From: a bacterium
GTDB lineage: Bacteria; SAR324; NAC60-12
Direction of reading: 5' to 3'
NCBI GenBank assembly: GCA_965205865.1
Contig: CBDBHR010000030.1
Location: 992,001 to 1,056,000 of the forward strand
DNA length: 64,000 bases
A program made the position numbers and the translations under genes. Under the pieces are notes generated by a model. It saw nothing but the letters and a program-made list of their open reading frames with translations. It had not been told where the DNA came from and did not search any database. Positions 13,864-61,705 of the stretch are shown here, in pieces. Numbering within the stretch: the stretch's first letter is position 1; each line of letters begins with the position of its first letter.

Positions 13864-13876
13864 TCGTGAATTGACG

Positions 13877-16327
13877 ATGACTGAGAAAATCATTGAGACG
13901 GATATCTCCCGGGAGATGCGCGATTCTTATTTGGAATACGCCATGAGCGTCATTATCGGACGCGCATTACCGGACGTCCGCGATGGTCTTAAACCCGTAC
14001 ATCGCCGAACTTTGTTTTCTATGACCGAGCAAGGCAATGACTACAATAAACCTTACCGAAAATCGGCGAGGGTGGTGGGGGACGTGATAGGTAAATACCA
14101 TCCTCATGGGGAGACTGCCGTTTACGATACCATCGTCCGCATGGCGCAACATTTTTCCATGCGTTATCCCTTGGTAGATGGTCAGGGAAATTTTGGTTCA
14201 GTCGATGGAGATTCTGCCGCTGCCATGCGTTACACGGAAATACGCATGGAACGTATCACCCACGAAATGATGACGGATCTGGAAAAAGATACGGTGGAGT
14301 TTGTCCCCAATTATGACGAGTCCTTCGAGGAGCCCAGCGTTCTGCCTACTAAAATACCCAATTTGCTGGTCAACGGTTCCTCGGGAATTGCCGTAGGAAT
14401 GGCAAGCAATATTCCTCCTCACAATCTCAGCGAAGTGATGAATGGTCTGCTTTATTATATGGACAACCAGAACAATGCGTCACTGCCTGAATTGATGGCG
14501 CATTTGCCCGGACCGGATTTTCCCACCGGAGGGCGAATCATGGGAAGATCCGGTATTTATGGCGCATACCAAAGCGGAAGAGGGATCATCGTGGTGCGGG
14601 CGCAAACCCACTTTGAGAAGGGACATGGAGATACGGAAAATATTATTGTGACGGAGTTGCCCTATATGGTCAACAAAGCCAATCTGATTGAAAAAATTGC
14701 CGGACTCGTACGCGACAAAAAAATCGAAGGTATTTCGGATTTACGGGATGAATCGGACCGCAAAGGGATGCGCATTTACATCCAGGTCAAACGTAATGAT
14801 AATCCGGAAGTCGTTTTGAGCAGTCTTTATAAACATACCGCCATGCAGTCTTCGTTTGGCATTATCATGCTCGCTATCGTCGATCAGCAGCCCAAAGTAT
14901 TGCCCTTGCCGCAAATCCTTCGTTTGTTCTTGGAACATCGCATGTTGATTGTCGGGCGAAGGATCCGGTATGAATTGAATCAGGCAGAAGCCAAAGCTCA
15001 TATTCTGTTAGGATTGACCATCGCTCTTTCTCACCTGGATGCAGTGATCGAACAGATACGCAATGCGGAGAATGGGGCGGTTGCCAAAGAGGAGTTGGTC
15101 GAAAATTTCAACCTTTCAGACAAGCAGGCTCAGGCCATTCTGGATATGAGGTTGCAACGTCTGACAGGATTGGAACGAGAAAAAGTTTTTCAGGATTTCG
15201 AGAAACTGAAAAAAGAGATTCAAACATTTCAGGAGATCCTTGCCGACGACCGACGTATTTTGGACATTATCCGGCAAGAATGCCTGGAAATCCGAGATAG
15301 ATACGGAGATCCCCGCCGTACCGAGATTTCTGAAGAAGACAGTTCCATTGCAATCGAGGAATTGATTACCCGTGAAGACATGGTGGTCACCATTTCCCAC
15401 AGTGGCTACATCAAGCGCAGTTCTGTCAGTGAATACCGCGTGCAACGCCGTGGCGGAAAAGGGCGGATAGGCATGAGCATAAAAGATGAAGATTTTGTGG
15501 AAAAAATGTTCGTGGCATCCACGCATGATCACTTACTGATATTCACGACGTTTGGGCAAGTTTTCGCCATGAAGGTCTATGAATTGCCCCAGGCGGGTCC
15601 TGCCAGCAAAGGAAAAGCCATCGTCAATCTTTTGCCATTGAGGGCAGAAGAAAAAGTTTGCGCCTACCTCAATGCCCCTGAATTTACGGAGGATCGCCAT
15701 GTGTTGATGTGCACAGTCAATGGTCTCTGTAAAAAAACCAATCTCTATGCATTTCGTAAAGTGCGCGCCACCGGGATTCGGGCTATCACACTCTCTGAGA
15801 AAGACACCATGCTCTCAGCCCAACTGACAGACGGGAATCAGGAAGTTCTGTTTGCCACGCGGCTGGGGATGAGTTTAAGGATTCATGAAAGCCAGATCCG
15901 TGCGATGGGCCGGGAAGCTCGTGGGGTGATTGGGATACGAATGAAAGAGCAAGATCAGTTGGTCACCATGGAAGTTTTGCAGAAAACAGGAGCTATTCTG
16001 ACAGTGACCGAGAACGGTTATGGCAAAAAGACGCTGCTTGAAGACTACCCGCTTTCTAAAAATCGAGGCAACCAGGGAGTTCGTACCATCAAAACCTCCG
16101 AGCGGAATGGTCACGTTATTGGCGCCCTGGAAATCGGAGAAGATTATCAGGTCTTGCTCGTCACTCAATTTGGAAAAGTGATCCGTATCAAAACCGATCA
16201 AATCCCGGTCATTGGTCGCATTACCCAAGGGGTGCGGCTTTTCAATCTGGAAGAGCAAGAGAAGGTCATTGATCTTGCCCGGTTATTGGAAGAATCGGAT
16301 GAAGAAGAGGAGAAGGAGCCCCTCTGA
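13877..16327 (+). CDS. gyrA: DNA gyrase subunit A
   Basis: GKYHPHG, AAMRYTE catalytic Tyr, GyrA-box QRRGGKG, C-terminal beta-pinwheel repeats. Confidence 0.98.
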
Positions 16328-16389: not shown

Positions 16390-16610
16390 AGTTTTTTTTG
16401 GCTTTGCCCGTGGATTTCTTCTTCCATTTTTTACGTCGATTAGCTGCCAGCTTGAATGCTTTTTCTTCTCCGTGTTTATTGATTGAAAACACGCGACATC
16501 GATGGATTCCGTATTCAGCGCTCCAAGATACCGAAGAAATACGCTGAAAATATCACCGCGATTCTTTTTCCTCGTCAGTGAACCCCAATCACTCGGATCT
16601 TGTTGCATTC
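16390..16610 (-). pseudogene. Frameshifted AP2-like DNA-binding domain remnant
   Basis: Fragments in different frames: VIGVH, TRKKNRG, SVSWSAEYG...RVFSINKHGEEKAFKLAANRRK; boundaries approximate. Confidence 0.45.
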
Positions 16611-17070
16611 GTCCCGTCTGACAATACGACGGACAGGATAGGACTATCCGATTTCCTAAATCAAGTCATCAAGGAACTCGATGGCTTGTTCCGGCACTAT
16701 TTTACTCCCATTGCATTTGAGATCATCGAACAACTCGGAATGATTGACGAAAGCAATTTCAGAGTGGAAAATACCAACGGAAAATCATAATTTTGCTGGC
16801 AAACAGGGAATCAGCAGATGTTCATGGCGCATCCGATAGTCCGGCCAATTTAAGAAAAAAATTCATTCGTGGGCACTATTTTTTTTCTAATGAAATCATA
16901 ACGATAGTTATAAAAATATGATTTTTTTAGCAATTTTTTTTAGGGTTTTTAATCAAATATTTGGGGCTAACAATCTGATATTTAAGGGTATCTTTTTCGT
17001 TGCTTTCCCATTCAGGATTCTCTATTGTGTGGGTACTTCACAAAAAAAGAGGGATATCGACTGAATCAGT

Positions 17071-17118
17071 ATCGACCACAAGGAGGTGGCACTCAATCGA
17101 CCACAAGGAGGTGGTACT
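17071..17118 (+). promoter_or_regulatory. Two tandem 23-bp repeats, each a CCAC-AAGGAG-GTGG hairpin (CsrA/RsmA-type site)
   Basis: ATCGACCACAAGGAGGTGG(C/T)ACT at 17071-17093 and 17096-17118, upstream of the dnaA-like gene. Confidence 0.55.
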
Positions 17119-17163: not shown

Positions 17164-18693
17164 ATGGAAGTGGATTTGGGGAAGAGGATGGATCTGAATA
17201 AAAGATGGTCGCTGCTTAAAGAACAACTTTGCAAAGAGTTGAAACCCGAACAGTATGAAGGGTGGATCGATCAAATTGTCTTGGCAGAAGCTTCTATCAG
17301 GAAAATCATTATTGCAGGCATTCCCCATCCTCTCTTTAGAGATGATATTGCAAGCAACTATGATCGCTTGTTTCGCAGGCTCCTCAACGAAATCTTTCCG
17401 GAAATCGCCCCTGTTTATAAGAAAAGAATCAAATACTGCGTGGGGACGTGCGATGTTGATCAAAAAGATCCTGTCCAAACGGAATTTGTTTTTGAAGAAT
17501 CCAGTGATGATATTTCTTCGGAAGAATTGCTGATCAGCGGCTCCAATCCTTCAGGGAAAAAAGCAAGAGCCATACTTGCCGGCAAGAAAGTCATTCCTCT
17601 ACAGACGTCGGATTTCGCCGCATTATTCAATCCCAAACACTCTCTGGATTCTTTAATTGTCAGTGAACACAACAAACTGGCTTATGAAGCGGCCCGGCAC
17701 ATTATTCATGCTCCTGGCGCTTCATACAATCCATTTTATATTTACGGAGAATTAGGGTTGGGCAAGACGCATCTACTGGAAGCCATCGGGCGGGCTTTTT
17801 TCCAGTTGCATCCGGGTTCCACCGTGATCTATCTCACTGCAGAATCTTTTTTGAATGATTATGTAGAACATATCCAGCAAAAGAAAATGAGCAATTTTCG
17901 ACAGCGGTACCGTAAAATGGATATGGTTTTGATTGATCGCGTGCAATTCATTTCAGGCGCCAAATATTTTCAGGAAGAGTTGTATCATACCATTGAATCC
18001 CTACAAAAAGCGGGGAAACAGGTTGTGGTGACCTGCAATCAGCTCAGTCGAAATATAAAAGAAATGAATCCCTCCCTCAGTTCCCTGTTGGAATCGGGAT
18101 TGATGGTGGAGATCACTAATCCGGACCTGGAAACCCGAATGGCGATTCTACGGAACCGGGCACGGAGGGATCATGTGAAACTCCCTCCGGAAGTTTGTTA
18201 TTTCATTGCCCAGCATATCACCACGAATGTTCGGAAAATGGAAAGTGCCCTGATCCGCTTGGGAGCGCATGCTTCCCTCCTTGGTCAAAAGATCACACTG
18301 GAATTTGCAAAAAGGAATTTGTCCGATCTGCTGGAAACTCCCTTTCATGAAGACCAAGTTGATCTGATTCTTCAAAAAATCTGTACCATGTCTCAGGTAT
18401 CTCGCTCTGATCTCAAATCAGGAGTGCGTGCCAGTCACGTGGTTTGCGCAAGACTGATGGGCATGTATTTGCTGAAAGAGTTGACGGATTTGTCCCTCAC
18501 TGAAATTGGCGCTCAATTTGGCAATCGGACCCATTCTGCCATTCATGACTCTATTAAACGGATTCGTAAAAGAATGGAAACGGACGACGTGTTGTGTCAA
18601 CAGCTTCAATTGCTGAAAGAGGATCTATCCCGGACCTGCGCAAAGCCAATGAAGATCCCTCGAAAGACCTGCGAAATGAAGCAACTCCCATGA
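17164..18693 (+). CDS. dnaA: DnaA-family protein, atypical paralogue
   Basis: All four DnaA domains are recognisable (YNPFYIYGELGLGKTHLL, NVRKMESAL, SLTEIGAQFG), but Walker B, sensor 1, arginine finger and DnaA-box reading residues are altered. Confidence 0.85.
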   Translation: MEVDLGKRMDLNKRWSLLKEQLCKELKPEQYEGWIDQIVLAEASIRKIIIAGIPHPLFRDDIASNYDRLFRRLLNEIFPEIAPVYKKRIKYCVGTCDVDQKDPVQTEFVFEESSDDISSEELLISGSNPSGKKARAILAGKKVIPLQTSDFAALFNPKHSLDSLIVSEHNKLAYEAARHIIHAPGASYNPFYIYGELGLGKTHLLEAIGRAFFQLHPGSTVIYLTAESFLNDYVEHIQQKKMSNFRQRYRKMDMVLIDRVQFISGAKYFQEELYHTIESLQKAGKQVVVTCNQLSRNIKEMNPSLSSLLESGLMVEITNPDLETRMAILRNRARRDHVKLPPEVCYFIAQHITTNVRKMESALIRLGAHASLLGQKITLEFAKRNLSDLLETPFHEDQVDLILQKICTMSQVSRSDLKSGVRASHVVCARLMGMYLLKELTDLSLTEIGAQFGNRTHSAIHDSIKRIRKRMETDDVLCQQLQLLKEDLSRTCAKPMKIPRKTCEMKQLP

Positions 18694-18707: not shown

Positions 18708-19709
18708 TCATTTCTCTGTTGTAATCATTCCTTTGAAAAACAAACCAAATTCTCCGGGAAGATAATCCTGGATCATGCCAAAATAGCGATTCCACGGAGC
18801 AACGGGCAGACGTTCGCGGCTTTGATAATACAGGGAGGTTTCACTGTGCTTCCAGCGTTCCTGTAAGAATGTTTTTAAAGGAGACTCCTCGCTCAAGCCT
18901 TCCAATACGATCACGCGCGAGCCTGAACCCGTAGCGTATTTTTCAAAATGCGCCACAATTTCTGCGCCTTTGTCTGCAGCCAGGTAACGTTCTAAAAGGA
19001 GGGTCGCCTGGTAATCAATTTTGATCCAATTGGTCAAATCCAACAACTCCAAATGTACTTCTGCATCCATTTTATTGGAATCATCCAGCACGAAGCCGAT
19101 TTCCAGGTCCTGGGCCAGGGTACGAATCGTCTTCAAATAATCTTTGGTGACATGTTCGCTCAGCTCCAGGTAAAAAAGGCGTTTATATTCGGGAAACAGT
19201 TGGAGGAGCAGTTTCAAGGCCATCGGGTAGTTCAAATAGTCCGCGTCCACATTTTGGGTGAACCGCAGCGTGCCCAGGTTTTCATGGGAAAGGTCGGTTT
19301 GCTGCTTCAAGAGACGCAAAGTGACCAAGGCTGCAATCAGGGACGCAAAACGCACCAGGACAGAAGAAATTCGTAATGCTTGGCATTGTTGCAGAATTCC
19401 ACCAAAACTGCGGCCTTCCCGGTCGATGGACAGCATTTCAAATCCCTTCGTTAAAGGATAGACGTCGTGGGCGGTAAGGACATCTACCGATTCGGCCTTC
19501 ACCGAAAACCATTTGAGATAATTTTTTGCGCGTTCACTCAGTTTTTGCCATTCTCTTGTCATCAGAATGGAGAGTAATTTTTCTATAATGGAAGGGAAGC
19601 AGGTCAGGGGGATGTTGGGTGGGACTAACAGTACAGCGGATTCGGCAAGCTTGTCATCATCCAGCATGTCTCCTATTTCAGCAGCTAAATCCAGGGAAGA
19701 TAAACTCAT
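18708..19709 (-). CDS. Stand-alone EAL-domain (c-di-GMP phosphodiesterase-like) protein
   Basis: Motifs in the expected order: GFEMLS, TQNVD, LELSE, VLDDS, WIKID, LEGL, YQ. Confidence 0.6.
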   Translation of the reverse strand: MSLSSLDLAAEIGDMLDDDKLAESAVLLVPPNIPLTCFPSIIEKLLSILMTREWQKLSERAKNYLKWFSVKAESVDVLTAHDVYPLTKGFEMLSIDREGRSFGGILQQCQALRISSVLVRFASLIAALVTLRLLKQQTDLSHENLGTLRFTQNVDADYLNYPMALKLLLQLFPEYKRLFYLELSEHVTKDYLKTIRTLAQDLEIGFVLDDSNKMDAEVHLELLDLTNWIKIDYQATLLLERYLAADKGAEIVAHFEKYATGSGSRVIVLEGLSEESPLKTFLQERWKHSETSLYYQSRERLPVAPWNRYFGMIQDYLPGEFGLFFKGMITTEK

Positions 19710-28252: not shown

Positions 28253-28396
28253 CCTCCCACGATATTGTTCAATCGATTGGGCGGGAACCCTCCCACGATA
28301 TTGTTCAATCGATTGGGCGGGAACCCTCCCACGATATTGTTCAATCGATTGGGCGGGAACCCTCCCACGCTTATTTTGAATCGATCGAGCGGGAAC
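28253..28396. repeat. 36-bp tandem repeat (three identical units plus one variant)
   Basis: CCTCCCACGATATTGTTCAATCGATTGGGCGGGAAC x3, no spacers. Confidence 0.95.
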
Positions 28397-28454
28397 CTTC
28401 TCCTTCCTTTAAACAACAAGGCATAATTTTATCAATTCAACTACGCAACCTTAA

Positions 28455-30146: not shown

Positions 30147-30898
30147 TTCTAAAACTGTAGGGAGTATCGAGTCAGTTTCTCAGTTTGAAATAATTCAAGC
30201 AATCCCGATGACTGTGTCATGCCTGACTTGATCAGGCATCCGGAAGTTCATCAGCAAATACTCCGGATTCCTGGTCAAGCCAGGAATGACGTTGGAAAGA
30301 CTGAGAAAGCCTCTATTGGTTTTTCCGTTTCTAAAACTGTAGGGAGTATCGAGTCAGTTTCTCAGTTTGAAATAATTCAAGCAATCCCGATGACTGTGTC
30401 ATGCCTGACTTGATCAGGCATCCGGAAGTTCATCAGCAAATACTCCGGATTCCTGGTCAAGCCAGGAATGACGTTGGAAAGACTGAGAAAGCCTCTATTG
30501 GTTTTTCCGTTTCTAAAACTGTAGGGAGTATCGAGTCAGTTTCTCAGTTTGAAATAATTCAAGCAATCCCGATGACTGTGTCATGCCTGACTTGATCAGG
30601 CATCCGGAAGTACATCAGCAAATACTCCGGATTCCTGGTCAAGCCAGGAATGACGTTAGAAAGACTGAGAAAGCCTCTATTGGTTTTTCCGTTTCTAAAA
30701 CTGTAGGGAGTATTGAGTCAGTTTCTCAGTTTGAAATAATTCAAGCAATCCCGATGACTGTGTCATGCCTGACTTGATCAGGCATCCGGAAGTTCATCAG
30801 CAAATACTCTGGATTCCTGGTCAAGCCAGGAATGACGTTGGAAAGACTGAGAAAGCCTCTATTGGTTTTTTCCGTTTCTAAAACTGTAGGGAGTATTG
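30147..30898. repeat. Head-to-tail tandem array of four ~182-bp palindromic units
   Basis: Period 182 bp; core GTCATGCCTGACTTGATCAGGCATCC...GGATTCCTGGTCAAGCCAGGAATGAC. Confidence 0.95.
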
Positions 30899-34119: not shown

Positions 34120-36015
34120 CTAATGCCCCATTTCTTTCTTCAGGTCCTGGTCAATCCAGAGACGGGTGAAGGGGGTATTATGTTGACCGACTCCCAACCA
34201 GAGTTCACCGTTATAACCTTTGACCCACGGCTGGTGCGCGTTAAACTGTGGGGTTTCGGGACCCCATATTGTCCAGTGCCTCTCTATCCCGTACATATTC
34301 AACTCCCTGACCATCCTCTGCTGCTCCTCAACGTCGGCAGTAGCCAGGGCGGCTTCAAACAAGGCGTCATATTCCGGTTCAGCTATTCCCCGCCAATTGC
34401 CTGGAGATTTCGAGTAATACTGGCGCATTGTCTCGACAGGTATCCACCTGCCGCCCGTTGCCCAAGCCCATAAACCTTCATAAGTCCCATCGTTTCTCAT
34501 CGGGATGGCCGCTTGTGAATCCATGAGATTAATCTCTGCCTCGATGCCAATCTCACGCCAGTATGCGACGGCTAATTCCAGGTAGTTCAGGTCGAACCGA
34601 TACGTGCCGTTCAGGACGGTCTTGAATCGAATGCCGTCCGAACCGAGCGGAAACCCAGCCTCATCAAGCAGCTTCCCGGCCCCTTCCGGGTCATAGGTAT
34701 AGCCTTTCCTGACCTCTTCGGGCCACTCTGCAAATGGGGTGGTATACCCTTTGATGTCTGCCGCCAGCAGCCCGGCAGGTTCCCAGTTTCCATAACCCTT
34801 AAAGAAGGTACGGTTAATAGTCTCGAGGTCCAGTGCCATCTGCATGGCCTTGCGCACCCTGATGTCGTCAAGGGGCGGCTTATCCACCACGTTAAAAGTG
34901 AAAGCATTATCCGAGCGATACCAATACGAGTGAAACACGAGTTCGGGATTGGTCTTCTTGAGGCTCTCTACCTGGTCGATAGACCTGAGTTGAGAGTCGC
35001 CGGGGGTCCCTGCGTAATCAACCTTAGCCGAGCGTAGTGCCGCTACGAATACGGCTGGTTCCGGCATAACCGCGCCCCTCAACTGGTCAATATAGGGCAG
35101 GCGATTCTCCGGGTATTTTTCGTCAAAGCCCCAGTAGTTGGGATTCTTGTCCCAGGTGATAGAGCTGTCCTCGACGAAGTCCGTCAGCATAAAAGGCCCG
35201 GTGCCGACCAGGTTCCTCCAATCCTTAACGTCGCCGTATTGCTCGAATACCTCGGGAGGGTACATAAAAGCATTGTAGTGGTCGACAATAAAGAACAGCG
35301 CAAGGGGCTGTGGCTCTTTCAGCTTCATCACAACCGTCGAATCATCGGTGGCCGTTATCGATTCCCACTGATAAGTGTGCAGTGGTCCAAACATGGTGCT
35401 ATGTTCGGTGAAGCCGCTGCCCAGACCCATCATGCGGTGAAAGTTATATTCGACGTCCTTGGCCGTAAATGCTCTGCCATTCATGGGGGCCTTGTCATGC
35501 CAGTGAACGCCCTGGCGGATTTTGAAGACATAGGTCAGCGGGTCGGGTTGCGACCAGCTTTCCGCCAGCGCCCCTTTTAAACCACTGAGAGGGACGTAGG
35601 TGGTTTTCCAGTCAACCACGTCCCGATCTATTCCCCAGTCCGCGATGCTGAGCTTCTCCAGCACGCCACTGATGAAGTGGCTCGCCCAGCCACTAATCAA
35701 ATAGACGTCCGTATGCTCACCAACCTGCTTGCGCACATAGGTCAATGTCCCGCCATACTCCGGCGCAGTCACCATATCACCGGTGGTGGGGTCTTTGACC
35801 ATTTTCTTCTCAGCCGCGACGGCTGAACTGACCCCGAGGACGGCCACCATCAGGGTCAGGATTAAAATAATCAATAATGATTGGATTGTTCTGATTTTTC
35901 TTTTTTCCATGATTCCTCCGCTTTCGTTTTGATTTGGGTTATGATTTTTTGGACGTTCCATTACTCCTCCTTTATTAGATGCGAATTGATTTTTATTGAT
36001 TTTATCTTTCATCAT
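34120..36015 (-). CDS. Family-5 ABC solute-binding protein
   Basis: PEYGGTL, LAESWSQ, GTGPF; the true start is probably MEKRK at about 35910 (GGAGG RBS). Confidence 0.92.
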   Translation of the reverse strand: MMKDKINKNQFASNKGGVMERPKNHNPNQNESGGIMEKRKIRTIQSLLIILILTLMVAVLGVSSAVAAEKKMVKDPTTGDMVTAPEYGGTLTYVRKQVGEHTDVYLISGWASHFISGVLEKLSIADWGIDRDVVDWKTTYVPLSGLKGALAESWSQPDPLTYVFKIRQGVHWHDKAPMNGRAFTAKDVEYNFHRMMGLGSGFTEHSTMFGPLHTYQWESITATDDSTVVMKLKEPQPLALFFIVDHYNAFMYPPEVFEQYGDVKDWRNLVGTGPFMLTDFVEDSSITWDKNPNYWGFDEKYPENRLPYIDQLRGAVMPEPAVFVAALRSAKVDYAGTPGDSQLRSIDQVESLKKTNPELVFHSYWYRSDNAFTFNVVDKPPLDDIRVRKAMQMALDLETINRTFFKGYGNWEPAGLLAADIKGYTTPFAEWPEEVRKGYTYDPEGAGKLLDEAGFPLGSDGIRFKTVLNGTYRFDLNYLELAVAYWREIGIEAEINLMDSQAAIPMRNDGTYEGLWAWATGGRWIPVETMRQYYSKSPGNWRGIAEPEYDALFEAALATADVEEQQRMVRELNMYGIERHWTIWGPETPQFNAHQPWVKGYNGELWLGVGQHNTPFTRLWIDQDLKKEMGH

Positions 36016-36016
36016 T

Positions 36017-36490
36017 TCTCCTTTTTCAGAAGTGATTTTTTTTTGATTTTACGTCTCATCCTGTCTCCTTTCATAAGAAATGACCGGTAAACCGGTGCGG
36101 TTAAAAAAATATTTTGGAGAGGATCCATCGTTTTCACATCTCCTTCCCTAAAACAACAAAGCATGATCTTAGCGCAAATATTATGAAGCCTCAAGCCCCA
36201 AATGAAAAAAAATGCGGAATTCGCAAAAAAAATTAAAAATCAATAAATCTCCTTTTTCAGAAGTGATTTTTTTTTGATTTTACGTCTCATCCTGTCTCCT
36301 TTCATAATAAATGACCGGTAAACCGGTGCGGTTAAAAAAATATTTTGGAGAGGATCCATCGTTTTCACATCATCTCCTTCCCTAAAATAACAAAGCATGA
36401 TCTTAGCACTACTATATTATTATGAAGCCTCAAGCTCCAAATGAAAAAAAATGCGGGATTCGCAAAAAAAATAAAAAATCAATAAATCTG
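36017..36490. repeat. Local ~230-bp tandem duplication of the SBP upstream region
   Basis: TCTCCTTTTTCAGAAGTG...AATCAATAAATCT occurs at about 36017 and again at about 36248. Confidence 0.85.
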
Positions 36491-48323: not shown

Positions 48324-50219
48324 CTAATGCCCCATTTCTTTCTTCAGGTCCTTGTCAATCCAGAGGCGGGTGAAGATGGTGTTAAATTGACCGATTCCCA
48401 AGAAGAGTTCACCGTTATAACCTTTGACCCACGGCTGGTGCACGTTAAACTGTGGGGTTTCGGGACCCCATATTACCCAGTGCCTCTCTATCCCGTACAT
48501 ATCCAACTCCCTGACCATCCTCTGCTGCTCCTCAACGTCGGCAGTGGCCAGGGCGGTTTCAAACAAGGCGTCATATTCCGGGGCAACGATGCCCCGCCAG
48601 TTGCGTGGAGCTTTCGAGTAATACATGCGCATTCTCTCGACAGGTATATACCTGACGCCCGTTGACCAAGCCCAGAAACCTTTATAAGTCCCATCGTTTC
48701 TCATCGGGTTGGCCGCTTGTGAATCCATGAGATTAATCTCTGCCTCGATGCCAATCTCACGCCAGTATGCGGCGGCTAATTCCAGATAGTTCAGGTCGTA
48801 CCGATACGTACTGTTGAGGACGGTTTTGAATCGAATGCCGTCCGAGCCGAGCGGAAACCCAGCCTCATCAAGCAGCTTCCCGGCCCCTTCCGGGTCATAG
48901 GTATAGCCTTTCCTGACCTCCTCGGGCCACTCTGCAAATGGGGTGGTATACCCTTTGATGTCTGCCGCTACCAGCCCGGCAGGTTCCCAGTTTCCATAAC
49001 CCTTAAAGAAGGTACGGTTAATGGTCTCGAGGTCCAGTGCCATCTGCATGGCCTTGCGCACCCTGACGTCGTCAAAGGGCGGCTTATCCACCACGTTAAA
49101 AGTGAAAGCATTATCCGAGCGATACCAATACGGGTGAATCACGAGTTCGGGGTTGGTCTTCTTGAGGCTCTCTATCTGGTCGATAGTCCTGAGTTGAGAG
49201 TCGCCGGGAGTCCCTGCGTAATCAACCTTAGCCGAGCGTAGGGCCGCCACGAATACGGCTGGTTCCGGCATAACCGCGCCCCGCAACTGGTCAATATAGG
49301 GCAGGCGGTTCTCCGGGTATTTTTCGTCAAAGCCCCAGTAGTTGGGATTCTTGTCCCAGGTGATAGAGCTGTCCTCGACGAAGTCAGTCAGCATAAAGGG
49401 CCCGGTGCCGACCAGGTTCCTCCAATCCTTAACGTCGCCGTATTGCTCGAATACCTCGGGGGGGTACATAAAAACATTGAAGTGGTCGACAATAAAGTAC
49501 AGCGCCAGGGGCTGCGGCTCCTTCAGCTTCATCACAACCGTCGAATCGTCGGTAGCCGTGACCGAATCCCACTGATACGTGTGCAGTGGTCCAAACATGG
49601 TGCTATGTTCAGTGTAGCCGCTGCCCAGACCCATCGCGCGGTGAAAGTTATATTCGACGTCCTTAGCCGTAAATGCTCTGCCATTCATGGGGGCCTTATC
49701 ATGCCAGTGAACGCCCTGGCGGATTTTGAAGACATAGGTCAGCGGGTCGGGTTGCGACCAGCTTTCCGCCAGCGCCCCTTTTAAGCCATGGAGAGGAATG
49801 TACGTTGTTTTCCAGTCCACCACGTCCCGATCTATTCCCCAGTCCGCGATGCTGAGCTTCTCCAGCACGCCACTGATGAAGTGGGACGCCCAGCCACCAA
49901 TGAAATAGACGTCCGTATGCTCACCCACCTGCTTGCGCACATAGGTCAATGTCCCGCCATACTCCGGAGCGGTTACCATCTCCCCGGTGGTGGGATCTGT
50001 GACCATCTTTTTCTCAGCCGCCATGGCTGGACTGACCCCGAGGACGGCCACCATCAGGGTCAGGATTAAAATAATCAATAATGATTGGATTGTTCTGATT
50101 TTTCTTTTTTCCATGATTCCTCCGCTTTCGTTTTGATTTGGGTTATGATTCTTTGGACGTTCCATTACTCCTCCTTTATTAGATGCGAATTGATTTTTAT
50201 TGATTTTATCTTTCATCAT
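48324..50219 (-). CDS. Family-5 ABC solute-binding protein, recent paralogue of 34120-36015
   Basis: Same 631-aa ORF length with clustered substitutions. Confidence 0.92.
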   Translation of the reverse strand: MMKDKINKNQFASNKGGVMERPKNHNPNQNESGGIMEKRKIRTIQSLLIILILTLMVAVLGVSPAMAAEKKMVTDPTTGEMVTAPEYGGTLTYVRKQVGEHTDVYFIGGWASHFISGVLEKLSIADWGIDRDVVDWKTTYIPLHGLKGALAESWSQPDPLTYVFKIRQGVHWHDKAPMNGRAFTAKDVEYNFHRAMGLGSGYTEHSTMFGPLHTYQWDSVTATDDSTVVMKLKEPQPLALYFIVDHFNVFMYPPEVFEQYGDVKDWRNLVGTGPFMLTDFVEDSSITWDKNPNYWGFDEKYPENRLPYIDQLRGAVMPEPAVFVAALRSAKVDYAGTPGDSQLRTIDQIESLKKTNPELVIHPYWYRSDNAFTFNVVDKPPFDDVRVRKAMQMALDLETINRTFFKGYGNWEPAGLVAADIKGYTTPFAEWPEEVRKGYTYDPEGAGKLLDEAGFPLGSDGIRFKTVLNSTYRYDLNYLELAAAYWREIGIEAEINLMDSQAANPMRNDGTYKGFWAWSTGVRYIPVERMRMYYSKAPRNWRGIVAPEYDALFETALATADVEEQQRMVRELDMYGIERHWVIWGPETPQFNVHQPWVKGYNGELFLGIGQFNTIFTRLWIDKDLKKEMGH

Positions 50220-50821
50220 TTCTCCTTTTTCAGAAGTGAATTTTTTATTGATTCTACGTCTCGTCTGTCTCCTTTCATAAGAAATGACCGGTAAACCGGT
50301 GCGGTTAAAAAATATTTTGGAGAGAATCCATCGTTTTCACATCATCTCCTTCCCTAAAACAACTAGGCATGATCTTAGCGCAAATATTATGAAGCCTCAA
50401 GCCTCAAATGAAAAAAATGTGGAATTCGCAAAAAAATTTAAAAAATCAATAAATCTGCTCAAATCCGGGGACAGTCAGAAGCCGCTCAGTTCAATAACGT
50501 TGAAAAAAGATTCCCGGGGAGGATCCATCGTTTTAACGTCCTTCCACGATATTGTTTAATCGATCGAGAACCCTCCCACGGTATTGTTTAATCGATCGAG
50601 CGGCAAACCTTTCTTTCACTAAAATAACTTAATGATGGCATGGTTGTAGCAAACTGTACGACGCAATGTCAACCCCCTGATGAAAAATGAATGCGGAATT
50701 CGTAAAAAAAAATAAAAAATCAATAAATCCGCTCAATTCGGGAAATCCGTTCCTTGATGATATGGATAAAGCAAAAGGAGCTATTGGGGAACAAATACGG
50801 AAGATTAAAAAAATTCTTTTA

Positions 50822-59019: not shown

Positions 59020-61705
59020 TCATACCTGCTGTCTCGTCAACATGGCCGCAAGGTCTGGCGGCAGTGTGATCCCATTTTTCTGTTCGAAGTCTTTCACGCT
59101 TTCGTAGTCGTTTTGAAATGAAGCGATGATGTCCACCCCCCTTTCTCTGGCAGCAGTCAGATCGGATCTGGCTTTTTCCCATTCTTGCAGATGTAACCAG
59201 GCCTCGCCACGATTGTGATAAGCCTTGCCATCATCCGGTTTCAGTTCTATGGCATTGTCAAAGTCCAAGATGGCATGCTCATAATCACCTTTTCGGTAGT
59301 AAGTAACTCCGCGATTGTAATAAGCTTCAGTATCATCTGGATTTAGTTCTATGGCCTTGTCACAGTCTGCGATGGCACGGTCAAACTCTCCTTTATGGCC
59401 GTAAGCAGTGCCACGATATTTATAAGCTTCAGCATCACCCGGATTTAGTTCTATGGCCTTGTCACAGTCTGCGATGGCACGGTCATGCTTTCCTTTACAA
59501 ATATAAGCAGTGCCACGATATTTATAAGCTTCAGCATAGTCTGGTTTCAGTTCTATGGCCTTGTCAAAGTCCAAAATGGCACAGTAATGCTCGCCTTTAT
59601 GGCCGTAAGCAAGGCCACGCTAATATCCTTAACTCTCTGTTGTAATAAGCTATAGCATCATCGGGGTTCAGTTCTGTGACCTTGTTATAGTCTGCAATGG
59701 CACGGGCAGATTCACCTGTTTTGCTGTAAGCATTTCCACGATTCTTATAAGCATTGTCAAAGTTTGGATTTAGTGCTATGGCCTTGTCAAAATCCACAAT
59801 GGCACAGTCATGCTCGCCATTACGATTGTAAGTGATACCGCGGCTGTAATAAGCTTCAGAATCATCTGGTTTCAGTTCTATGGCTTTGTTAAAGTTTGCG
59901 ATTGCATGGGTATACTCTCCTTTATAGTCGTAAGCATATCCACGATTCTTATAAGCTTCAGAATCATCTGGTTTCAGTGTTATGGCCTTGTCAAAGTCAA
60001 CAATGGCACAGCCATGCTCTCTTTTATGGCCGAAAGCAAGGCCACGGTTGTAGTAAGCCTTGGCAAAGTTTGGTCTCCGCGCAACTGCCTTATAATAATC
60101 CTGAATTGCATTGTCATACTCGCCTATATTGCTATAAGCATTGCCACGATTGTTATAAGCCTCGGCAAAGTCTGGTTTTAGTTCTATGGCCTTGTTAAAG
60201 TCTGCAATAGCAGGGGCAGACTTCCCTGTCTTGTTGTAAGCACTGCCTCGGTTGTTATAAGCTTCGGCATAGTCTGGTTTCAGTTCTATCGTCTTGTTAA
60301 AGTCTAGAATTGCACGGTCATGCTCGCCTTTACGGTCGTAAACAAGACCACGATTGAAATAAGCCACGGTATATTCTGGGTTCAGTGCTATGGCCTTGTT
60401 ATAGTCTACGATGGCACGGTCGTGCTCGCCTTTACGGCCGTAAGCAAGACCACGGCTGTAGTAGCCGGCTGCATCATTCGGGTTTAGTGCTATAGCCTTG
60501 TTATAGTCTGCGATTGCACGGTCATACTCGCCTTTATCGAAGTAAGTAGCACCACGATTTATATAGGCTTCGGCAAAATTCGGGTTCAATTCTATGGTCT
60601 TGCTATAGTCTGCGATAGCACGGGCAGACTCGTCTGTATTCTTGTAAGCAAGACCACGGTTGTAGTAGCCGGCCGCATCATTTGGGTTTAGTGCTATAGC
60701 CTTGTTATAGTCTGCGATAGCACGGTCATACTCCCATTTATCAAAGTAAGCATTGCCACGGCTATAGTAACAGGCTGCATCATTTGAGTCCAGTTCTATA
60801 GCTTTGTTCAAGTCCTTGATGGCACGGGCAGACTCACCAGTATTGTTGTAAGCAACACCACGATTCATATAAGGTAAGGCAAAGTCTGGTCGCATTGCTA
60901 TGGCCTTGGTACAGTCTTGAATGCTATGGTCATACTCGCCTGTTTTGCCATAAACACCACCACGATTCGTATAAGCCTCGACAAAATCTGGTTTCAGAGT
61001 TATGGCCTCAGTGTAATGACATATAGCTTTGTCGTGATCTCCTTTGTCTTGGCAGGTCAACCCTTTATAAAACTCCATATTGGCACTCCGGTGTATGTCG
61101 CGATGTTTGATGAATCCCTGAAGGTCGTTGTAGATGGTTGCGGTAGACAAACCATGGTACTTTTGCAGGTGCTCCAAGATAGGTTGTTTGAGGTCTTTCG
61201 GGATAGAGATTACATCGTCTGGTTCAAGAAAACCCTGCGGTGGTCGCACGAAGAGGCTCTTTTGGGCGATTACGCGATTTCTGGGATTCAGAGGATGATT
61301 GATGTGTTTTTCTACCGGTTCCCTTTTTTGCAAGATAATCCTTCCGTCTCTGTCCTGGGAGCCGTCGCAGGCGAAGAAAAGGGCTATGAGGTAGTCGGTC
61401 GTAAAGTCGATCAGGTTGGTTTTTCCGCCAAAGTGTTGCAGTTCGGTCAGGATTTCAAATTCGTCGTTTTCGTGAGTATACTTTTTAGCCTCTTTCAGAA
61501 TTTCCCTTTGGACAGCCTCTATATCAAAATGCTCTGACTCAACGCCATATTCACGGTAGAGGCTCGAGGAGACTTTCTCGTAGCATTCTGGTTCGCCGCG
61601 GTAAATGCAGTCACCGTCGGCTGATTTTTCCGCAATCTCGTGGATTATTTCCAAAACCTCGCTGAGTGAGTCGCTTTGAGTATTGGATGTGTCTGGTGCG
61701 TTCAT
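59020..61705 (-). pseudogene. FRG-domain plus multi-TPR protein split by a 19-bp insertion (ORFs 59597-61705 and 59020-59574)
   Basis: YRGE, LQHFGGKTNLIDFT, IALFFAC, RVIAQKSLF, then many 34-aa TPRs; the 702-aa upstream part may still be expressed. Confidence 0.85.

Follow-up and report, generated by a model that had tools for sequence, protein, structure and literature searches.

Can a DnaA that lacks the arginine finger and several other residues of the ATP switch still initiate chromosome replication? The question is raised by a gene at 17164..18693 (+) in a 64,000-nucleotide stretch of DNA (hereafter the window) from a bacterium of the SAR324 lineage NAC60-12 (GenBank assembly GCA_965205865.1, contig CBDBHR010000030.1, positions 992,001 to 1,056,000). 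The ATP switch of DnaA (arginine finger, Walker B and sensors) underlies textbook models of once-per-cycle origin firing, and mutating its residues kills DnaA in Escherichia coli and Bacillus subtilis. Here these residues have drifted in the only DnaA of a family of uncultivated but abundant bacteria, which belongs to a widespread marine and sponge-associated lineage. An earlier note, made from the sequence of the window alone, had read the gene as a DnaA paralogue with disabled initiator motifs, repurposed as a filament cap, an inhibitor or a transcription factor of new specificity. Our analysis upholds the disabled motifs and rejects the paralogue: the gene is the single, vertically inherited DnaA of its genome, and on balance we favour a protein that would still be the chromosomal initiator, with a decayed ATP switch. 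In the literature searched we found no report on SAR324 DnaA and none of a natural DnaA without the arginine finger.

Loss of the ATP-switch motifs

The open reading frame (ORF) encodes 509 amino acids, and residues of the window protein are numbered on this ORF. The true start is probably the ATG at 17188, giving 501 amino acids, because the corresponding Met9 is near-invariant in protein alignment A3 and the relatives P0008 and P0014 begin there. The protein scores 394.4 bits with TIGR00362, the NCBIfam DnaA equivalog, against a cut-off of 343.9 that is passed by 38 of the 88 phylum genomes searched, many members of the window's order scoring below it. Its Pfam matches are DnaA_N, Bac_DnaA (165.6 bits), Hda_lid and Bac_DnaA_C (69.6 bits). 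With the Hda model TIGR03420 it reaches 100.6 bits (cut-off 194.8), and domains I and IV are present, so that it is not an Hda; nor is it a member of the chlamydial second-DnaA family (NF009087, 157 against a cut-off of 657). The best relative of known structure is B. subtilis DnaA (PDB 8btg; phmmer, E 2.8e-76), which aligns with no gaps across the AAA+ core. In an AlphaFold model with a mean pLDDT of 82, domains I, III and IV are confident and the linker (99-150) is disordered; the modelled domain III superimposes on that of Thermotoga maritima DnaA (2z4r_A) with a template-modelling (TM) score of 0.95 and a root-mean-square deviation of 1.2 Å, and on B. subtilis domain III with a TM score of 0.94.

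Residue equivalences were taken from the ungapped phmmer alignment to B. subtilis DnaA and from an alignment with E. coli K-12 DnaA. The Walker A P-loop GELGLGKT (17749..17772, +; residues 196-203) is intact, with K201/T202 equivalent to K178/T179, as is the arginine of sensor 2 in NVR (18226..18234, +; R357 = R334). E227, the equivalent of E. coli E204, is also kept. Walker B reads MVLIDR (LIDRVQ; 17923..17940, +), where D258 preserves D235 and R259 replaces D236, and the phosphate-contact lysine (E. coli K243, B. subtilis K222) is replaced by A266. Sensor 1 reads CNQ instead of SDR (18034..18042, +), placing N292 at the position of D269. In box VII, PSLSSL(L) (18070..18087, +) has lost both arginines: S304 stands for R281, S306 for K283, and L308 for the arginine finger R285. 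Every one of these motif readings had been made by eye in the earlier note, as had that of the recognition helix RTHSAIHDS, and each is confirmed by the alignments; the view that the changes are disabling also stands.

The positions concerned are near-invariant elsewhere. Among 101 DnaAs of other lineages (P0020-P0120), D236 is retained in 101, K243, D269, R285, R334 and D433 in 100 each, and R281 in 99, so the changes in the window protein lie far beyond chance variation. According to a review (PMC5742627), R285, essential for intrinsic ATPase activity, reads the ATP bound to the adjacent protomer, R281 serves oligomer stability, and R334 is required for hydrolysis.

The substitutions are neither sequencing artefacts nor signs of a dying gene. 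The stretch was found in 20 public runs of 12 studies, and DNA contigs of two other studies span the whole gene and differ in the coding sequence only at 18637, 18640 and 18671, so that all motif codons are identical in independent contigs. RNA-library contigs from two studies cover parts of dnaA including the Walker B and sensor 1 codons, with DNA carry-over possible; their coverage does not extend to the finger codon or to 16417-17099. Compared with a same-genus genome (78% amino-acid identity), dnaA has a dN/dS of 0.175 overall, with 0.086 in domain I, 0.53 in the linker, 0.12 in domain III and 0.26 in domain IV. Eleven neighbouring genes have values of 0.04-0.25 (gyrA 0.06, dnaB 0.11). Judged from its codons, dnaA is a functional gene under purifying selection.

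A single orthologue without a canonical partner

The window genome (30 contigs, 91.9% complete; G000) holds no second TIGR00362 match above the cut-off; its other matches to DnaA models are domain-IV-only or weak AAA+ matches, the two weaker Bac_DnaA matches being IstB-like proteins. The same-genus genome G001, a single contig of 4.26 Mb, encodes exactly one DnaA. In the window's order, 36 of 41 genomes have one match each and the remaining five (73-93% complete) have none. Across the SAR324 phylum, a match was found in 76 of 88 genomes and was the only one in 75 of the 76. In the exception, G046, a further DnaA with fully canonical residues is encoded by a contig of 10.7 kb whose GC content is 41%, against 36% for the SAR324-type contig, and the nearest relatives of this second protein are non-SAR324 DnaAs (43% identity); it is likely to be bin contamination.

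Since the window gene is the sole dnaA of its genome and of G001, and branches inside the clade of its order, it is a single, vertically inherited orthologue, not a paralogue. A search for a second canonical dnaA beside dnaN, as the earlier note had proposed, found none in the window genome or G001, which leaves the supposed cap or inhibitor no canonical DnaA to act upon. That note had also considered that the gene might prove to be the only dnaA of a complete genome and to support initiation: the first part holds in the single-contig relative, and the second is what comparison of the sequences would suggest. The absence of dnaN directly after dnaA, which it had noticed, is correct; the next gene is convergent.

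Among other replication genes, nothing in the window genome passes the Hda cut-off (TIGR03420; best non-DnaA match 26.8 bits against 194.8) and no Orc1/Cdc6-type initiator scores above cut-off. A DciA-type domain (28 bits, cut-off 24) and an IstB/DnaC-like protein of 313 amino acids are present. Two further kinds of protein share the DNA-binding domain of DnaA: a multi-copy IS200-like Y1 transposase of 330 amino acids fused to a DnaA domain-IV helix-turn-helix (HTH), seen at L012:1492-2484 (-) and in about 14 further places in the genome, and a stand-alone DnaA_C protein of 173 amino acids (46 bits; L018:1267-1788, +).

Graded decay across SAR324

The changes are not peculiar to this assembly; they recur in relatives. 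We compared 20 dnaA loci of the window's family (f1), 10 of its sister family (f2) and seven genomes sampled from other orders of the same class. In these seven, all catalytic residues are canonical. In f2, R281 is kept in none of ten loci and D236 in five, while R285 and R334 are kept in all ten. In f1, D269, R281 and F46 are kept in none of the 20 loci, K243 in one, R334 in six, R285 in ten and D236 in 13; where the finger position is not arginine it is lysine (seven), leucine (two) or glutamine (one). The decay is thus lineage-wide and graded, being absent in the sister orders, partial in f2 and strongest in f1, as far as the sampled sequences go.

Other parts of the protein have been held constant in the same 20 loci. 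K178 and R227 (AID-1) are kept in all, L290 (AID-2) in 18 and E204 in 17, and R399, R432 and H434 of domain IV are likewise kept in all. The catalytic replacements vary, with R, N, G, E or D at position 236, L, Q, K or R at 285, and R, G, S, Q, T, C or A at 334. Because the replacements differ at the same sites within one family, the drift of the catalytic site has the pattern of relaxed constraint, which would not suit a newly fixed solution.

A maximum-likelihood tree of 64 rows (quick search, LG+G4) placed all 54 rows of the window's order in one clade (SH-aLRT 99), inside which the substitutions recur. Leucine or glutamine at the finger position falls within a group of 12 rows (support 88), and asparagine or arginine at position 236 occurs in 15 of the 17 rows of a clade with support 99. 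A wider survey took the best 150 representatives at 50% identity from 1.84 billion proteins and aligned 145 of them, omitting two that were very long and three that had been counted before. At least two deviations among D236, D269, R281, R285 and R334 were found in seven proteins; six lie inside the SAR324-order clade, and the seventh (P0205) is a fragment of 295 amino acids whose deviations are alignment gaps. Three further proteins have one deviating site each.

The gene order has changed along the same series. In the sister orders, dnaN is next to dnaA in all three genomes whose downstream genes were scanned, recF follows in two of them, and gyrB comes after recF in the one scanned locus long enough to show it. 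In f2, dnaN follows dnaA in nine of ten loci and the tenth is ended by a contig edge. In f1, 58 of 123 listed flanking ORFs were scanned (DnaA itself, shadow and small ORFs were left out) and none is dnaN; the dnaN genes of 28 f1 genomes lie on other contigs or far from dnaA.

The DnaA-trio pocket and the recognition helix

The initiator-specific motif (ISM) region (17842..17979, +) forms the pocket for single-stranded DNA. In the cryo-electron microscopy structure of the B. subtilis protein described in PMC10721633, E183, N187, I190, I193, R202 and E228 capture the bases of the DnaA-trios between adjacent protomers. These residues correspond to E227, N231, V234, I237, R246 and E272 of the window protein, in which the motif is kept. 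In f1, E183 and N187 are each kept in 17 of 20 loci, positions 190 and 193 are hydrophobic in all 20, and R202 and E228 are kept in all 20. The outgroup varies at three of the six (R/K/H/Q at 202, I/V at 190, I/L at 193), so that R202 is more constant in f1 than outside it. The trio pocket, which is formed only between the protomers of an initiator filament, is thus under strong constraint, and the retention of this initiator-specific pocket argues that the window DnaA still initiates.

The HTH of domain IV (18358..18564, +) coincides with the Bac_DnaA_C match. In E. coli, R399 and the helix 434-451 are described as reading the DnaA box (PMC5742627). Among the box-reading residues, R399 (R422 in the window protein) and H434 (H457) are kept. 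The others in the recognition helix RTHSAIHDS (18526-18552, +; RDHTTVLHA in canonical DnaA) are changed, with T456 at the position of D433, S458 at T435, A459 at T436 and D462 at H439.

An ancestral origin module upstream of dnaN

In the window genome dnaN lies on the same contig as dnaA (G000 C30:749704), 260 kb away, and the 320 bp in front of it form a spacer whose GC content falls to 19.5%. A basal unwinding system (BUS) is defined in PMC8287927 as a DnaA box with at most two mismatches, a spacer of 0-16 nt and at least three NAN trios with the consensus 3'-GAT-5'. In the loci of the family (n=27), the last ~60 nt before dnaN carry a BUS-like module, in which two co-oriented boxes (for example TTATCAACA-AG-TTGTCAACA or TTTTCGACAGGTTTTCGACA) are separated by a short spacer from TACTACTAC..., whose complementary strand reads 3'-(GAT)n-5'. 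A run of at least three TA[C/T/A] units is present in 17 of the 27 loci, in 16 of them at a distance of 18-27 nt from the dnaN ATG; runs of (TAC)3+/(GTA)3+ number only 16 in the whole 4.74-Mb window genome. The same boxes and a CTAC start occur in f2 within the dnaA-dnaN spacer. Because f2 holds the module inside that spacer, the ancestral layout was dnaA-origin-dnaN, from which dnaA departed at the base of f1.

The recognition helix and the boxes were compared in 18 genomes with both dnaA and dnaN. All 11 genomes that keep T436 have one to three TC[A/G]AC[A/C] boxes in the last 90 nt before dnaN and three to 12 within 450 nt; the boxes lie at -32 to -56 nt in all but one genome, which has a third box at -87. 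The other seven genomes form the window's subclade and carry T436A. Here the trios persist before dnaN in five of seven genomes, the sister species G001 showing a clear TACTACTACTAT, and in four genera a box-like AATATCAATAAC precedes the trios by 41-42 nt, a distance that exceeds the 16-nt limit of the BUS spacer as defined in PMC8287927.

Canonical DnaA boxes are not concentrated around dnaA. With at most one mismatch to TTATCCACA, 12 matches were counted in the window against 15.5 expected, and no canonical box cluster lies upstream of dnaA in any of 29 loci; the earlier note, which had seen no box cluster, is borne out in the window and genome-wide. Several candidates for a replacement were tried and rejected. 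De novo 8-mer clusters in intergenic DNA were a CRISPR-like array, (CCCAGTT)n microsatellites and a 182-nt tandem repeat, none of them origin-like, and a position weight matrix built from AAATCA-type motifs upstream of dnaA found its top clusters in the AT-rich leaders of two paralogous transporter genes. In 7-mer enrichment over seven dnaN-upstream and six dnaA-upstream regions of the subclade, ATCAATA and AAAATCA came top, being present in five of seven and six of six regions, and did not rise above block-shuffled controls (95% values of 7 and 6). A new box of the AAATCA/ATCAATA type is a lead only.

On contig C30 of the window genome, the cumulative GC and gene-strand curves have their maximum at ~600-640 kb and only small local minima at ~750 and ~950 kb, in the neighbourhood of dnaN and dnaA. 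For G001, 60 sampled sites place the global GC-skew minimum at ~1.5 Mb, and 452 kb of contiguous sequence give broad minima at ~1.53 Mb (GC skew) and ~1.51 Mb (strand bias); dnaN is at 1.453 Mb and dnaA at 1.795 Mb.

Very AT-rich spacers were also seen in G001 at 1.4896-1.4900 and 1.4990-1.4994 Mb. In the latter region, the spacer at L167:19033-19403 (G001 1,499,033-1,499,403) lies between divergent genes near the skew minimum, with GC down to 13%; it adjoins a restriction-enzyme-like fragment, contains two AATATCAA motifs, and is a possible alternative origin candidate.

Does the window DnaA still initiate replication?

Taken together, we judge it probable, by a modest measure, that the window DnaA is still the chromosomal initiator, in the form of a hydrolysis-dead variant without an arginine finger whose ATP switch has decayed, because the catalytic sites drift while constraint persists on the P-loop, AID-1/2, the trio pocket, domain I and the HTH. 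Such a protein would probably bind nucleotide as a structural cofactor, would probably not hydrolyse ATP at a useful rate, and would not read its neighbour's γ-phosphate through an arginine finger. Assembly of the filament on single-stranded DnaA-trios would rest on contacts independent of the nucleotide, and the timing of initiation, with no Hda, would need a control different from the ATP/ADP cycle. The ancestral box-plus-trio unwinding module directly upstream of dnaN, seen in the relatives, would have been inherited by the window genome as well, dnaA having moved off it at the base of f1. Within the window's subclade, T436A in the recognition helix goes together with the loss of the classical boxes next to the trios. 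With T436A in place and the boxes gone, the window DnaA probably recognises a changed box, which agrees with the new DNA specificity suggested by the earlier note. A partial precedent for unwinding independent of ATP may be found in the DnaAs of Helicobacter pylori, Synechococcus elongatus and Deinococcus radiodurans, which unwound BUS scaffolds with ADP as with ATP according to PMC8287927. The fuller proposal, that the initiator of this lineage neither hydrolyses ATP nor senses it through the finger, that the switch is dispensable, that the trio filament is nucleotide-independent, and that helix and boxes have co-evolved towards a new box, is tentative; we think it plausible and a little short of probable.

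Several observations weigh against an initiating DnaA. ATP-dependent oligomerisation and unwinding are described as requiring the arginine finger in E. coli and B. subtilis (PMC5742627, PMC10721633, PMC8287927), and B. subtilis DnaA R264A as inactive (PMC10721633, PMC8287927), so that leucine at this position should cripple the protein unless something compensates. All seven T436A genomes lack a TC[A/G]AC[A/C] box in the 90 nt before dnaN and have zero to two within 450 nt, which matches the background (0.11 per 90 nt on each strand); since the subclade is one clade, this counts as one evolutionary event, not seven. In the window genome itself the trios are degenerate, reading TAC TGA TAT TAC GAT GAA with four NAN units after one break that are not of the GAT type, and no BUS box lies within 16 nt of them (no TC[A/G]AC[A/C] in the 90 nt before dnaN). 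Three or more canonical boxes within 400 bp were found nowhere in the 4.74-Mb assembly, and no origin-like cluster of TTNTC[A/G]ACA or WTATCARTA was found in it. Both G000 and G001 have only a weak, irregular GC and gene-strand skew, and the G001 minimum falls at neither gene, dnaN being the nearer at 60-80 kb and dnaA lying 260-280 kb away.

Most of these observations would also be expected under the main rival explanation, namely that the window's subclade replicates without DnaA-oriC and keeps DnaA as a transcription factor or nucleoid protein with a new target. The weak skew, which is irregular even in the single-contig G001, the missing box clusters, the empty dnaN-proximal regions of the seven subclade genomes, the decaying trios of the window genome and the loss of the finger and other switch residues would all fit, as would the conserved operator-like element upstream of dnaA itself (see below). 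There is a parallel in cyanobacteria with irregular skew, which are reported to replicate without DnaA, some of them keeping dnaA (PMC7198777). Against this explanation, the six residues that capture the trios are kept in 17-20 of the 20 f1 loci even though three of them vary outside the family; constraint on the protein is tightest in domain III and in the helicase-loading hub, domain I; and five of the seven subclade genomes have trios before dnaN, with the box-like element conserved 41-42 nt further upstream in four genera. We therefore regard replication without DnaA as unlikely, while taking it as the most serious competitor.

A second alternative is that the ATP switch still works through compensating residues, which might be R259 acting in cis, K267 beside the lost K243-equivalent, or another basic residue serving as finger in trans. 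The P-loop, D258, E227 and R357 are all present in the window protein, lysine or arginine directly follows the lost lysine in 13 of the 20 f1 members, and the finger position itself is lysine in seven of 20. Compensation should, however, have fixed consistent replacements, and those at 236, 285 and 334 are inconsistent within f1, as relaxed constraint would make them; there is also no Hda to drive hydrolysis. This explanation seems to us decidedly unlikely. Finally, a paralogue capping or inhibiting the filaments of a canonical DnaA encoded elsewhere would account for motif losses that suit a filament-poisoning subunit, and the window genome is only 92% complete, but with no second DnaA in G000, in the single-contig G001 or in 75 of the 76 phylum genomes with a match, and with the protein branching as an orthologue inside its order's clade, it is very improbable indeed.

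If, as we favour, the window DnaA initiates, it would be a natural system that separates filament assembly from ATP sensing, and would show how a cell can time its replication independently of the ATP/ADP cycle. Otherwise, SAR324 would be a second bacterial group, after some cyanobacteria, to have abandoned DnaA-oriC. In either case, the canonical sister orders, the intermediate f2 and f1 offer a ready comparison series of proteins, and the paired change of helix and box is a testable case of initiator-origin co-evolution.

The dnaA upstream region and neighbouring genes

The spacer between gyrA and dnaA is 836 bp long. It contains a conserved, single-copy, AT-rich non-coding element of ~150 nt (16888..17033, +), found upstream of dnaA in seven genera although their DnaAs are only 42-78% identical. 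An nhmmer search with the element gave one match in the genome (E 2.7e-34) and seven loci at E <= 1e-13. Within it are an inverted pair, TGAAATCATAA (16891-16901) and TATGATTTTT (16917-16926), followed by TTTAATCAAAT (16948-16958), TTGGGGCTAA (16961-16970) and a sigma-70-like TTGCTT-N17-TATTGT (17000-17028), the last recognised by eye and not listed by a consensus scanner. An RNA reading of the element was rejected, as it had no Rfam match and its consensus fold (-1.3 kcal/mol) showed no compensatory pairs. The element stays with dnaA in differing neighbourhoods, and gyrA is upstream in only three of the 30 loci compared. We regard it as a candidate dnaA promoter with operator sites, possibly for DnaA itself. 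Further downstream, the dnaA leader carries two tandem 25-nt copies of ATCGACCACAAGGAGGTGG (17071..17118, +); G001 has one degenerate copy, so that the duplication is specific to the window species.

The upstream neighbour is gyrA (13871..16327, +). The gap between it and dnaA holds an ORF of 70 codons (16578-16790, +) that has no Pfam family and may be a real small gene, since a locus of another genus (L030) has a counterpart of 44% identity in the corresponding position; the three loci with gyrA upstream share the order gyrA-orf70-dnaA. Downstream, the convergent gene at 18708..19709 (-) encodes 333 amino acids and is the last of a rpsR-rplI-dnaB run. It has no Pfam match and a protein-atlas feature score of 0.98 to 'EAL domain-containing protein' clusters, and looks like a degenerate EAL-like protein. 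As it adjoins dnaA only in the window's genus, it was rejected as a conserved partner of DnaA.

Other repeats and genes in the window and genome

Several unrelated features were noticed. The 182-nt unit mentioned above is repeated 4.1 times with 98% identity in non-coding DNA at 30147-30896 of the window, and belongs to a genome-wide 8-mer cluster (G000:C30:1021968-1023058). Two paralogous genes of 631 codons (34120-36015 and 48324-50219, both -) have, by eye, a signal peptide and features like those of solute-binding proteins; their leaders (35860-36120 and 50060-50330) are near-identical and AT-rich, with repeated GGAG-ATG mini-starts and a 47-nt tandem repeat. A repeat of 32-36 nt, CCTCCCACGATATTGTT(C/T)AATCGAT..., occurs in four tandem copies at 28253-28397 and in two at 50540-50600. 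An array of 102-nt (34-codon) repeats with 69-81% identity at 59229-60873 is probably the gene of a TPR-type repeat protein. Elsewhere in the genome, intergenic (CCCAGTT)n microsatellites of ~10 units lie at G000:C30:196300-196390 and at least six other sites (C29:425449, C29:690236, C30:1250407, C30:775653, C26:157310 and C30:397328), and ~26 evenly spaced units in 1.8 kb of non-coding DNA at G000:C27:226243-228070 look like a CRISPR array.

Comparison with known systems

With Hda and the chlamydial second DnaA, the window protein has the AAA+ clade in common and membership in neither. With canonical DnaA (E. coli, B. subtilis; TIGR00362; PDB 8btg, 2z4r, 2hcb) it shares the four domains, single-copy orthology and the fold of domain III, and also the P-loop, the ISM/trio pocket, AID-1/2 and the HTH residues R399 and H434. 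It differs in lacking D236, D269, R281, R285 and K243, in the recognition-helix changes D433T, T435S, T436A and H439D, and in that its gene is linked neither to dnaN nor to a canonical box cluster.

The closest counterparts of the finger change are the laboratory mutants E. coli R285A and B. subtilis R264A, in which the arginine is lost at the position occupied by leucine in the window protein. These mutants are described as forming no ATP-specific complexes and unwinding no origin (PMC5742627, PMC10721633). In contrast, the change in the window protein is natural, fixed in several species, and carried by a sole DnaA under purifying selection. At the level of the origin, the family resembles the BUS origins of Pelliciari et al. 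(2021, PMC8287927; 2023, PMC10721633) in having two co-oriented boxes, a spacer of 1-5 nt and three to five (GAT) trios before dnaN. It departs from them in its box consensus TTNTC[A/G]ACA, in which position 6 is not C, and in the loss of the boxes from the window's subclade.

The cyanobacteria reported to replicate independently of DnaA-oriC (Ohbayashi et al. 2020, PMC7198777) likewise retain dnaA and have an irregular skew and no obvious oriC beside dnaA. For SAR324, DnaA-independence is a hypothesis only. We know of no report of ATPase-motif loss in those cyanobacterial DnaAs. For the recognition helix, the nearest parallel is T. maritima DnaA (2z4r), whose helix also departs from RDHTTV and reads RSHPVVVDS; unlike the window protein, it keeps the Walker B DD, sensor 1 and both box VII arginines. 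T. maritima DnaA binds a non-canonical 12-mer box, and its helix and box together provide a precedent for the co-evolution of domain IV with the sequence that it reads.

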